Source: an uncultured Collinsella sp. (GTDB lineage Bacteria; Actinomycetota; Coriobacteriia; Coriobacteriales; Coriobacteriaceae). Taken from it: 57,640 nucleotides of DNA. Location of the stretch: positions 1 through 57,640 of the forward strand of contig CABUWD010000001.1 of assembly GCA_902495155.1 (NCBI GenBank). The letters run 5' to 3'. The notes under the pieces are model-generated. The model was given only the letters and a program-made list of their open reading frames with translations. It made no database searches and was not told the DNA's origin. Every line of letters begins with the position of its first letter. The stretch's first letter is position 1. Below, piece after piece: positions 48,312-50,545 of the stretch. The position numbers and the translations under genes were made by a program.

Positions 48312-49016
48312 TTAGCGAACGGCCCGCTGCGATTTGCGCCACAGCAGATACGAGTAGACGTAGACGGCTCCGACCGAACCAAACGCCAGAACCGCAATCA
48401 CCGCGGCGACGACTTCACTCGAAAGCACGCTGCCTGCCACGCCCATCACAATCAGGCCAATACCCAGCACCATAAAGCAGGCGCCGCCAAAACGCTGCGT
48501 ACGGCGCCAGTTCTCGGGATCGGCAAGCGCCCAAGGTGTCTTGATACCGAGCGTATAGTTCTGCTTCACACGCGGCAAATAGTTGCCTACGCCGATGAAC
48601 AGCAAACCGACAACACCGGAAATCAGCACGTTAACCGAACCGACCGCCGGCACCACGCCCCAGACCGTAAGCTCTCCCAGCCAGCTTATGGCGCACATGA
48701 ACAAGGTGAAGGCGATTACGAAGCCCTGGTAGAACTTGCCCGAGGTTCGATATGCCTCACCTTTGGGGTCGATGCGCGGCACCACGCAGAACATTGCGAG
48801 AAGCGCCAGAGGCAGCACGCCGAGCACGGAGGCCATCCAGCTAGGACCCCAACCGTCGACGGCGCCGTTCGCGCCCCAATGCGTGGGAATCTGCGCAGGC
48901 AAGCTCGGCATCACCATGAGGTGCGCTACGACATTGGCGACGCACAGAGCGACCAGCGCAATCCACACGCGCGACGATACCCCCGTGGGGTGAATGCCCT
49001 TGTTTTCGTTATTCAT
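48312..49016 (-). CDS. sdpI: SdpI family immunity protein (DUF1648 + SdpI)
   Basis: LPAQIPTHW..G.VDGWG, IDPK, GNYLPRVKQNYTLGIKTPW..ENWRRT. Confidence 0.88.
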   Translation of the reverse strand: MNNENKGIHPTGVSSRVWIALVALCVANVVAHLMVMPSLPAQIPTHWGANGAVDGWGPSWMASVLGVLPLALLAMFCVVPRIDPKGEAYRTSGKFYQGFVIAFTLFMCAISWLGELTVWGVVPAVGSVNVLISGVVGLLFIGVGNYLPRVKQNYTLGIKTPWALADPENWRRTQRFGGACFMVLGIGLIVMGVAGSVLSSEVVAAVIAVLAFGSVGAVYVYSYLLWRKSQRAVR

Positions 49017-49287
49017 CCTTATCACCTTCCGTGTTTGTAAAACCCATAAACCAGCCAATCAAATCCTGCATGACGGTGGTGTTTAAGCTGTATACGATGT
49101 TTTGGCCATGGCGCTCGTCGGTCACCAACCCGGCGTTTTTGAGCGTCGCCAAGTGATGGCTCAGCGACGGCTTACTGATATCGAAATGCTCGGCAAGCTC
49201 CCCCGCCGTGCAATTGCCCTCGCGCAGCAACTCCAAAATGCGCCGTCGCGTTGGATCGGCAAGCGCCTTAAAACCCTCTCCCGGCAT
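49009..49287 (-). CDS. sdpR: ArsR family autorepressor SdpR
   Basis: FKALADPTRRRILELL..TAGELAEHFDISKPSLSHHL..YSLNTTV; overlaps the sdpI start. Confidence 0.88.
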   Translation of the reverse strand: MPGEGFKALADPTRRRILELLREGNCTAGELAEHFDISKPSLSHHLATLKNAGLVTDERHGQNIVYSLNTTVMQDLIGWFMGFTNTEGDKDE

Positions 49288-49321
49288 AAGACCTCCTCTC
49301 ATCATCTCTCATGACGCGCAC

Positions 49322-49351
49322 ACTATACTCGATATTTAGATGTTTGTCTAA
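49322..49351 (-). promoter_or_regulatory. sdpRI promoter and probable SdpR operator
   Basis: Minus strand TAGACA-N17-TATAGT; overlapping dyad TTAGA-N6-TCTAA (49336-49351). Confidence 0.6.
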
Positions 49352-49373
49352 CTATCTAATACAGGAACATCTA

Positions 49374-49402
49374 TAGAACATTCGTTCGTATTTAGCTACA
49401 AT
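49374..49402 (+). promoter_or_regulatory. Promoter with LexA/SOS-type box
   Basis: TAGAAC-N17-TACAAT with GAAC-ATTC-GTTC (49376-49387) overlapping the -35. Confidence 0.65.
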
Positions 49403-49453
49403 GGAAGTTGAAGCAGATGGGCCAGCTCCCTCTACCCGAGAAGGAGATGGACT

Positions 49454-49540
49454 ATGAGTATTGACGATGTCCTGACGTTGTTATTGCTTGTAATCGCGGC
49501 TGTGGAGCTCGGCATCCACATTGGAGGTCGAATGAAATAG
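49454..49540 (+). CDS. 28-aa hydrophobic peptide, putative type I toxin (not in ORF track)
   Basis: AAGGAG RBS 7 nt upstream; MSIDDVLTLLLLVIAAVELGIHIGGRMK*. Confidence 0.7.
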   Translation: MSIDDVLTLLLLVIAAVELGIHIGGRMK

Positions 49541-49660
49541 CCGCCCCCGCGTAATGCGAAGACGGCCACTTCTCACGCTACAAACGTGTTTGGGAGTTGG
49601 CCAACCCGCGGCAACGGGTGCCATCTGCTTCATCTTATGCGAATCACTGCCTCATTTCAA
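49541..49660 (-). ncRNA. Putative antisense antitoxin RNA with its promoter (3' end unknown)
   Basis: Minus strand TTGAAA-N17-TAAGAT (49660-49632) firing into the peptide gene 3' UTR. Confidence 0.5.
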
Positions 49661-49747
49661 CAAGCCCCTAGGGCTCAAATGGAATCGCGATAATACCTAT
49701 AATGACGATAGCTAAAACACGATTCGCTTCCCCATCGGAGGATGTCT

Positions 49748-50545
49748 ATGACCGAAACCACAGCCGCAACCCCCAACGAGACACGCGACACCAAGCTCGA
49801 GATCATCATGGGCCGCGAGGCACTCGACAAACTCGCCGCCGCCACGGTGCTGGTGCTCGGCTGCGGAGGTGTGGGCTCCAATTGCTGCGAGGCACTTGTC
49901 CGCGGCGGCATTGGTCATTTCGTCATTCTGGATAAGGACATCATCGCGCCCAGCAATATCAATCGCCAGGCCATCGCCTTTCAAAGCACCATCGGCAAGC
50001 GCAAGGTCGATGTTATGGAAGCCATGATCCACGACATCAATCCAGCCGCTACCGTCATCAAGCGCACCGAATACCTGTTGAGCGACAATATCGACGAATT
50101 TTTCGCGCGCGTTTTGGAGCAGACGGACGGCAAGCTCGACTACGTCGTCGACGCCATCGACACCATCTCGGCCAAGCTCACCATTGCCAAATATGCTCAG
50201 GACCACGACATTCGTTTGGTTAGCTCCATGGGCGGGGCCAACAAGCTCCATCCCGAGTGCCTCCGCTTTGCCGACATTTTCGATACGGTACGTGACCCCA
50301 TGAGCCGCATCATGCGCAAAGAATGCAAGAAGCGCGGAATCAAGAGTCTACATGTACTGTTTAGCTGCGAGGAATCGGTTAAGACACAGCCCCGCGACCC
50401 TTCCAATATCCACGAGCGCACCGAGCTCGGAACCGCCAGCTTTATGCCGCCCATCATGGGCCAGATGATTGCCGGCGAGGTTATCCGCCAGATCAGTGGC
50501 CGCGGCACCGAGCGCGTGCGCGCCGATGGCCAGCGCTTGGACTAG
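49748..50545 (+). CDS. tcdA: ThiF family protein, tRNA threonylcarbamoyladenosine dehydratase-like
   Basis: GCGGVGS, D.D...SNINRQ, VVDAIDT, SSMGGANKL; ATG 49748 fits the GGAGG spacing. Confidence 0.8.
   Translation: MTETTAATPNETRDTKLEIIMGREALDKLAAATVLVLGCGGVGSNCCEALVRGGIGHFVILDKDIIAPSNINRQAIAFQSTIGKRKVDVMEAMIHDINPAATVIKRTEYLLSDNIDEFFARVLEQTDGKLDYVVDAIDTISAKLTIAKYAQDHDIRLVSSMGGANKLHPECLRFADIFDTVRDPMSRIMRKECKKRGIKSLHVLFSCEESVKTQPRDPSNIHERTELGTASFMPPIMGQMIAGEVIRQISGRGTERVRADGQRLD

Follow-up and report, generated by a model that had tools for sequence, protein, structure and literature searches.

The window analysed here, the whole 57,640-nucleotide (nt) stretch at the start of contig CABUWD010000001.1 of an uncultured Collinsella sp. 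(GCA_902495155.1), contains a gap of 436 bases between an ArsR-type regulator gene (minus strand, 49009–49305) and a ThiF-family gene (plus strand, from 49742). This gap is the site of a candidate type I toxin–antitoxin-like locus, in which a promoter overlapped by a putative LexA box precedes a short open reading frame (ORF) for a hydrophobic peptide, the messenger RNA (mRNA) is predicted to be closed by a helix between its two ends and a candidate antisense RNA gene faces the peptide gene from the 3′ side (Table 1). A second copy, on contig 202 of the same genome, follows an aldehyde dehydrogenase gene and encodes a related 27-residue peptide with its own GAAC-N4-GTTC box and its own 5′ and 3′ arms of different sequence; the window locus and its close relatives are referred to below as type 1 and the contig-202 copy and its relatives as type 2. 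Judged by sequence comparison, these loci belong to an order-wide (Coriobacteriales) family of type I toxin–antitoxin-like loci that is new as far as the literature was searched. The toxicity of the peptide and the action of the antisense RNA, implied by the terms toxin and antitoxin, are presumed.

Table 1. Features of the candidate locus, numbered by position in the window
Feature	Position	Strand	Basis or detail
Toxin promoter	49374–49402	+	−35 TAGAAC 49374–49379, 17-nt spacer, −10 TACAAT 49397–49402
LexA (SOS) box GAAC-N4-GTTC	49376–49387	both	overlaps the spacer and the 3′ part of the −35 element, at about −33 to −22 relative to the transcript start
Toxin mRNA, about 215–227 nt	49409–49632	+	RNA sequencing (RNA-seq) contigs and fold
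Helix 1, 5′ arm	49409–49420	+	inverted repeat, fold, covariation
Leader pyrimidine stretch (anti-Shine–Dalgarno)	49421–49434	+	pairs with the Shine–Dalgarno sequence in the minimum-energy fold, alternatively with 49592–49602
Shine–Dalgarno sequence AAGGAG	49441–49446	+	seven bases before the ATG; paired in the minimum-energy fold
28-residue single-pass hydrophobic peptide ORF (candidate toxin)	49454–49540, including stop	+	ATG at 49454
Conserved 3′ module (mRNA 3′ untranslated region and antisense gene body)	49537–49640	both	covariance model R1, 119.5 bits
Helix 2, 3′ partner	49592–49602	+	local pairing within the 3′ untranslated region in the minimum-energy fold
Helix 1, 3′ arm	49621–49632	+	inverted repeat, fold, covariation
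Antisense promoter	49632–49660	−	−35 TTGAAA 49655–49660, 17-nt spacer, −10 TAAGAT 49632–49637
Predicted antisense RNA (candidate antitoxin), about 90–97 nt, three hairpins	49530–49626	−	ends inferred
Terminator-like hairpin of the antisense RNA, 17 base pairs	49534–49572	−	the U-rich tail behind it overlaps the final toxin codons and the stop

The plus-strand promoter, with GAAC-N4-GTTC over its −35 element, is present at the coordinates claimed in the first-pass annotation of this DNA, as are all the other features named there, most of which prove functional by comparative and RNA-seq evidence; it scores 8 of 12 in a consensus scan, one match below the threshold, and is hence absent from the list produced by the scan. 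GAAC-N4-GTTC occurs at a single site in the window, which alone is not significant (0.82 expected by chance), and at 24 sites in the whole genome. Two of these boxes lie directly upstream of lexA, one of them being the identical 12-mer to the window box, and intergenic copies are also found upstream of recA, ruvC (12 nt before the gene), a rarA/mgsA-type gene and a GyrI-like gene; one box stands before each of the two peptide paralogues of the genome. The box arms are invariant in all 78 distinct type-1 copies and all 47 distinct type-2 copies, while the central N4 and the sequence just upstream vary freely, a pattern that fits a protein-binding palindrome. Judged by its placement, GAAC-N4-GTTC, named in the first-pass annotation as the Gram-positive LexA box, is this genome's own LexA box, and LexA probably binds at the toxin promoter. 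Outside the family to which Collinsella belongs, the exact box precedes the relatives in one other family (2/2 loci) and a box with one mismatch overlaps the −10 element in another (3/3 loci).

At the type-2 paralogue (L002, positions ∼1335–1375, contig 202) the LexA box forms the inner part of a long hairpin that is followed by a T-run, and the outer stem of this hairpin covaries between species. The hairpin looks like the terminator of the upstream aldehyde dehydrogenase gene doubling as an operator.

The ORF encodes a peptide whose most hydrophobic 19-residue segment spans residues 6–24 (hydropathy 2.33), with acidic residues at positions 4, 5 and 18 and basic residues at positions 26 and 28; both the AAGGAG ribosome-binding site and the hydrophobic ORF with a basic C-terminus had been recognised from the sequence, and codon variation now adds to them. 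Variant codons number eight synonymous and six non-synonymous in type 1 (per-site ratio 0.24) and 11 and three in type 2 (per-site ratio 0.08), the ratios assuming that synonymous sites make up about one quarter of all sites. The sum of 19 synonymous against nine non-synonymous variants compares with a ratio of about 1 to 3 expected from the site counts. Judged by these codon variants, the 28-residue ORF is under purifying selection and evolves as coding sequence. Types and families of differing nucleotide sequence all retain the Shine–Dalgarno sequence, ATG, frame length and stop codon, and over dozens of species the peptide hardly changes.

The peptide could be assigned to no named family, as the first-pass annotation had found without searches. 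Scans against Pfam, NCBIfam, PHROGs and PADLOC gave sub-threshold noise only and no family that fits. With a profile built from 12 peptides, a set of 1.84 billion representatives yielded 33 small proteins at E ≤ 0.001; the peptide pattern is common to nearly all of these, and one match (P0031) is repetitive and spurious. An exact look-up of the window peptide in a collection of 15 billion proteins found no entry, and that of the paralogue peptide sits in a cluster of seven. The TisB, DinQ, Fst, Ldr and Hok families were not returned by scans of 12 peptides against Pfam (Hok) or Pfam and NCBIfam, in which matches were listed to E ≤ 10.

RNA-seq assemblies from four runs in two studies contain whole contigs of 211–227 nt that start at 49408, 49410 or 49411 and end at 49621, 49622, 49625 or 49635, i.e. 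6–9 nt after the −10 element and at the end of the 3′ arm, respectively. The RNA of the paralogue was assembled too and starts at the predicted 5′ arm in both runs of one study. A discrete RNA with the predicted ends exists. The data are assembled contigs without strand, the coinciding ends of which are a weak hint; they support a transcript rather than its direction or level. No contig covers 49200–49407 or 49641–49703 in the four runs, which was not counted as evidence.

The predicted transcript (49409–49640) folds with −102 kcal/mol (z = −6.13) and none of 200 dinucleotide-shuffled sequences folds as well. Its two ends form an inverted repeat (49405–49420 and 49621–49636) with arms of 16 nt that are 94% complementary, lie 200 nt apart and share a perfect core of 12 nt, the helix 1 of Table 1. 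A stem of 12 base pairs is by itself borderline against chance (the maximum in 200 shuffles was also 12), and it is conservation and covariation that count here, rather than this one sequence. Among 30 distinct transcripts of type 2, the 13 pairs of helix 1 are 98.7% paired, and two of the pairs change on both sides (G-C in 13, A-U in 11 and G-U in four; C-G in 13, U-A in eight and U-G in seven). The covariation score of 0.133 versus 0.105 was reached by none of 500 shuffles, and pairing fell to 45% or less in slid controls in which the partner was moved by one to three columns. Beyond type 2, a contiguous helix of 9–16 base pairs of different sequence occupies the same relative place in 12 of 15 instances drawn from several types and four families, and in one further instance the closing helix is longer and split in two. 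In 12 of 18 cases the leader binds its own 3′ arm better than it does those of other types, with a mean duplex energy of −39.2 kcal/mol for cognate and −28.7 kcal/mol for non-cognate pairs. Taken on this comparative evidence, the 5′–3′ mRNA clamp is real, and the pairing conserved in homologues that had been named as a check is found in the covariation within type 2 and the recurrence in other types.

The first-pass annotation proposed two long-range pairings, which fared differently: that of 49409–49420 with 49621–49632 is perfect and covaries, whereas the second, helix 2 (49421–49431 with 49592–49602), is possible but lies outside the minimum-energy fold. In that fold the CUCC of the leader pairs instead with the Shine–Dalgarno sequence, an arrangement that had been offered as the alternative, and the resulting hairpin is 100% paired and almost invariant in type 2. 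Helix 2 is complementary in most types; the comparison of cognate and non-cognate duplexes failed to separate it (−24.9 versus −23.5 kcal/mol) and, since helix 2 and the Shine–Dalgarno hairpin both hardly vary in type 2, covariation cannot distinguish between them. A single leader stretch can thus pair with either partner, which would provide the raw material for a switch.

The 3′ untranslated region coincides with a conserved module that is likely to be a gene in its own right on the opposite strand. The convergent promoter TTGAAA-17-TAAGAT noted earlier was listed by the consensus scan (9 of 12), and in 16 of 18 instances, among them families with differing surroundings, a minus-strand TAnnnT hexamer immediately adjoins the 3′ arm. 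The predicted minus-strand RNA, taken as roughly 99 nt, folds with −47.9 kcal/mol (z = −4.45). In 20 of 20 instances the hairpin beside the toxin stop has its more stable form in the minus-strand RNA (−28.7 kcal/mol for antisense versus −10.9 kcal/mol for sense in the window), because its G-U pairs turn into A-C mismatches when the strand is switched; the same bias holds for the module as a whole in all 20. The stretch that encodes the basic C-terminus of the peptide doubles as the U-rich tail of the antisense RNA. In intact loci the module always begins at the toxin stop and the 3′ arm of helix 1 is located between the last module hairpin and the antisense −10 element. Over 100 nt, the modules of types 1 and 2 share 91% identity.

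The module also persists where the toxin gene has been lost. In all 15 loci examined among those that match only the last 146 bases of the unit, the region corresponding to 49361–49534 (box, promoter, leader and ORF) is replaced by about 16 bases ending in an A-run, and the module is kept from the stop codon onward with 91–99% identity. The A-run gives the minus strand a run of at least six U residues (seven in most). Such toxin-less modules occur at three chromosomal sites: the ArsR/ThiF site, that of the aldehyde dehydrogenase gene and a third one behind an endonuclease III-like gene (recognised by eye through a C-terminal motif), where one copy keeps the last codons of the ORF. Variation per site among 22 distinct toxin-less copies is 0.047 in the module versus 0.08–0.12 in the flanks, and that of the module in 73 intact copies is 0.034. 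The promoter position, the fold, the strand bias and the retention after toxin loss are four independent signs that together point to a convergent antisense gene. An Rfam scan of 49200–49800 at E ≤ 10 returned four chance-level matches, none near the gathering score, and no antitoxin family. The possibility that the module is the leader of the minus-strand ArsR-type operon was rejected, as it also occurs after the aldehyde dehydrogenase and endonuclease III-like genes, with nothing downstream on that strand.

When the 321-base unit was used as the query, matches were found in 130 of 151 genomes of the genus Collinsella. The places comprise the whole unit at the ArsR/ThiF site in at least 51 genomes, at least two matches cut by contig ends and at least 39 places with the last 146 bases only, the remaining listed places being of the paralogue type; these classes are lower bounds, with 49 further matches beyond those listed. 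A neighbouring genus and a small number of Collinsella genomes carry divergent types (types 3 to 6). A covariance model built from the 3′ module matched 97 of 121 genomes of the genus and 2 of 9 of one other genus of the family. In the order-level search (E ≤ 0.01) it matched 13 of 21 genomes of the same family and 6/22, 3/21, 2/22, 1/19 and 1/12 genomes of five further families, the match in the 1/19 family being weak, at 26.9 bits (E = 0.003). None of 33 genomes from seven other families of the order matched, and no match was found outside the order in a phylum-wide sample of 151 genomes. Seven of eight loci examined in four other families (all seven in three of these families) have an ORF for a hydrophobic peptide of 24–33 residues that ends at the start of the module. 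The homologous loci and covariation that had been listed as a further check are both seen, in module matches across the order and in compensatory changes in helix 1. In plasmid and phage collections, blastn returned no match. A third match of the model in the Collinsella genome itself (contig 16, E = 0.0027) was set aside, as it looks like an ordinary terminator hairpin.

Individual loci depart from the common plan. A type-3 copy (L084) has an in-frame TGA after codon 21, and the usual stop is absent from a copy in the neighbouring genus (L129), which reads on through the module for about 130 codons; these two may be decaying copies. In the type-4 locus L086 a 33-residue peptide of quite different sequence precedes the same kind of 3′ module and the locus has its own 5′–3′ helix of 14 base pairs, which suggests that toxins unrelated to each other can be accommodated by the RNA scaffold. 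In a further family, one genome (G286) has five module matches, and at the one examined (L269) there is neither a recognisable peptide ORF upstream nor a minus-strand −10 element at the usual place.

Several known type I systems share parts of this architecture. TisB/IstR-1 (PMC11264685) and DinQ/AgrB (PMC3567139 and PMC5066626) also pair a small single-pass membrane peptide with a LexA box in the promoter. In these systems, as predicted here, the mRNA structure makes the primary transcript translationally inert. There is no sequence relation to TisB or DinQ in Pfam or NCBIfam. According to PMC8594479, their antitoxin RNAs are encoded 5′ of the toxin gene without overlap, whereas the candidate antisense RNA described here overlaps the 3′ untranslated region. 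The two systems belong to E. coli, whereas the LexA motif here is of the Gram-positive/actinobacterial type and the host is a member of the Actinomycetota.

The position of the predicted antisense RNA resembles that of TxpA/RatA, BsrG/SR4, BsrE/SR5 and YonT/SR6 of Bacillus subtilis, in which a convergent 3′ antisense RNA covers the end of the toxin mRNA (PMC8594479 and PMC5848175). Antisense RNAs that overlap at the 3′ end are typical of Gram-positive type I families (PMC8594479). The Bacillus peptides are likewise short and have a single transmembrane helix between a polar N-terminus, in which one residue is acidic, and a C-terminus that is basic. Homology between the peptides is unsupported, and no Rfam antitoxin family matches. 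The peptide model for the group, which we take to be Hol_Tox (Pfam PF16935), gave a best E value of 0.073 (13.4 bits versus a cut-off of 23.3) in one of the 12 peptides scanned, matched none of 24 library relatives and had no match in the Collinsella genome at E ≤ 10. Binding of SR4 at the 3′ end also alters the structure around the ribosome-binding site, and this action is of the kind proposed here. We know of no LexA control in the TxpA/BsrG group and, to our knowledge, a 5′–3′ closing helix has not been described for it.

A long-range pairing between the 5′ and 3′ ends of the full-length mRNA is found in Hok/Sok of plasmid R1 and AapA1/IsoA1 of Helicobacter pylori (PMC8594479 and PMC6733600), an analogy of mechanism only. 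Their antisense RNA is directed at the 5′ part of the mRNA and is overlapped by it along its full length (PMC8594479), whereas the antisense promoter is here at the 3′ end. The two systems also differ in having no LexA box, unrelated peptides and Gram-negative hosts. No Pfam or Rfam match to Hok features was obtained, and no search aimed at an overlapping mok-like frame was made. In Hok and AapA1 the 5′–3′ lock makes the full-length toxin mRNA stable and untranslatable, and activation follows 3′ trimming.

The interpretation of this DNA as a type I toxin–antitoxin candidate, made beforehand from the letters alone, is supported at each point open to computation (the box, the coding character of the ORF, helix 1, the transcript and the signs of an antisense gene). 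We therefore consider it probable that the locus is type I toxin–antitoxin-like and consists of a LexA-switched gene for a membrane peptide, an end-paired mRNA and a facing antisense RNA gene. With its box at about −33 to −22, LexA would occlude the promoter and keep transcription low until DNA damage occurs, upon which the mRNA of about 220 nt would accumulate. The end-to-end helix would protect this mRNA and, with the Shine–Dalgarno hairpin, keep it silent: since the Shine–Dalgarno sequence is paired with the leader CUCC inside the closed molecule, the primary transcript is expected to be stable and poorly translatable. The antisense RNA (∼95 nt), complementary to 49530–49626 including both 3′ arms, would pair with the 3′ untranslated region; this pairing may lead to double-strand cleavage of the mRNA, or hold the GGAG of the 3′ arm off the leader so that the leader stays on the Shine–Dalgarno sequence, or both. 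When the mRNA is in excess of the antisense RNA, the peptide would be made and inserted into the membrane, and growth would be slowed or stopped.

Several observations weigh against this toxin–antitoxin interpretation. The 24 box-like sites in the genome are about as many as composition predicts (an estimated ∼27), so the case for the box rests on its placement; the box is absent from types 3–6, the neighbouring genus and a third family among the loci compared; and, given that the type-2 box is inside a terminator-like hairpin, part of its conservation could be structural. The mRNA is present in cultures that were apparently not DNA-damaged, which implies that LexA repression is leaky or the RNA very stable, and the contig ends, compared in RNA runs only, are weak evidence. 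Forcing helix 2 costs 18.4 kcal/mol (−83.6 versus −102.0 kcal/mol), and it has no both-side changes within type 2. Finally, several genomes have a toxin-less module as their only match among the matches listed, and an antitoxin role alone fails to explain its retention there.

The strongest of the alternatives is that the peptide is a small SOS-induced membrane effector or checkpoint factor, for example a division inhibitor that acts on the divisome, with the antisense RNA and folding merely tightening its expression. SidA of Caulobacter crescentus is such a factor, an SOS-induced, LexA-controlled membrane peptide of 29 residues that inhibits division. The likeness to SidA, compared by description, lies in the LexA control and a membrane peptide of ∼29 residues; we know of no antisense RNA or mRNA clamp in the case of SidA. 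A checkpoint role would agree with a box common to lexA, recA and ruvC, with a near-invariant peptide, more to be expected of one that binds a specific protein than of one that damages membranes in general, and with a chromosomal locus that has nothing similar in plasmid or phage collections. Set against this are the several paralogues per genome and several divergent types, the repeated and independent loss of the peptide gene with retention of the antisense module at three sites and the types that have no LexA box. Paralogy, repeated loss and box-less types are habits of toxin–antitoxin loci rather than of a core checkpoint gene, and we regard this alternative as unlikely; the two explanations are compatible with each other and not exclusive.

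Less probable still, to the point where we give it little credence, is that the 3′ module is a free-standing small RNA or bidirectional terminator with a function of its own and that the peptide gene is merely adjacent. The module does persist in conserved form where the peptide gene is missing, as the only match in some of the genomes listed, and the five copies in one genome of another family, including the examined copy L269 with no ORF, could be read in the same way. However, the order of stop codon, module, 3′ arm and antisense −10 element is fixed in every intact locus, and neighbourhood alone is a poor explanation for an arrangement that is kept across types with differing peptides and arms. 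The 91% identity of type-1 and type-2 modules would, moreover, allow toxin-less copies to act in trans. That the plus-strand transcript is a non-coding structured RNA with an untranslated ORF, which its very stable fold (z = −6.13), its paired Shine–Dalgarno sequence and the absence of the exact peptide from 15 billion proteins might suggest, is highly improbable in view of the 19 synonymous versus nine non-synonymous variants, with about 1 to 3 expected, and the Shine–Dalgarno sequence, ATG, frame length and stop kept across types and families.

A more elaborate form of the type I toxin–antitoxin interpretation is put forward tentatively, as a possibility that we ourselves find rather doubtful. 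The Coriobacteriales loci might form a toxin–antitoxin family, new for the Actinomycetota according to our searches, with a three-way RNA switch acting over 200 nt, LexA coupling to DNA damage and trans-protective toxin-less antisense genes. In such a switch the GGAG arm of the 3′ untranslated region would compete with the Shine–Dalgarno sequence for the leader CUCC, and binding of the antisense RNA at the 3′ untranslated region would return the leader to the Shine–Dalgarno sequence and turn translation off. Since the type-1 and type-2 modules are so nearly identical (∼91%), toxin-less copies could act in trans on the paralogue, and toxin-less antisense genes would then persist as protection against paralogous toxin mRNAs.

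The surroundings of the locus and the wider set of LexA boxes gave some additional observations. The neighbouring minus-strand operon (48312–49305) encodes the ArsR-family regulator and a membrane protein with SdpI/YfhL and DUF1648 domains, a layout that is that of the SdpR/SdpI immunity pair of Bacillus; it may be by coincidence that a pair resembling peptide-toxin immunity lies beside a candidate peptide toxin. Downstream of the antisense −35 element, a small hairpin (49664–49674) with a compensatory change from G-C to A-U at its base between species, may end toxin read-through or belong to the promoter region of the ThiF-family gene. Besides lexA and recA, candidate members of the LexA regulon in this genome are ruvC, the rarA/mgsA-type ATPase gene, the GyrI-like gene and two divergently oriented genes, one gyrase B-like and the other for an HTH_3 regulator, together with a site 180 nt upstream of rpoB. 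They are located near position 15603 of contig 2, 6414 of contig 35, 8682 of contig 66, 3353 of contig 114 and 3599 of contig 140.

Searches of the literature found no such type I system for Collinsella, Eggerthella or the Actinobacteria, and nothing relevant on LexA boxes, in the T1TAdb database or on Collinsella small RNAs. The main text of the T1TAdb paper (PMC8594479) covers 24 type I families with no mention of Actinobacteria; the thousands of predicted ORFs in its supplementary material and in that of Fozo et al. (2010) could hold a relative.

The locus would bring together three control devices that are known separately, namely a LexA box, a 5′–3′ mRNA clamp and a 3′-overlapping antisense RNA. 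Collinsella is one of the commonest genera of the human gut, and the family is also found in at least four further families of the order by covariance-model matches, with peptide ORFs in three. Such a compact system may help to explain how an anaerobic commensal comes to arrest its growth or to persist when its DNA is damaged, for example by drugs or when phages are induced in the gut, and the many natural toxin-less variants would serve as ready-made controls.

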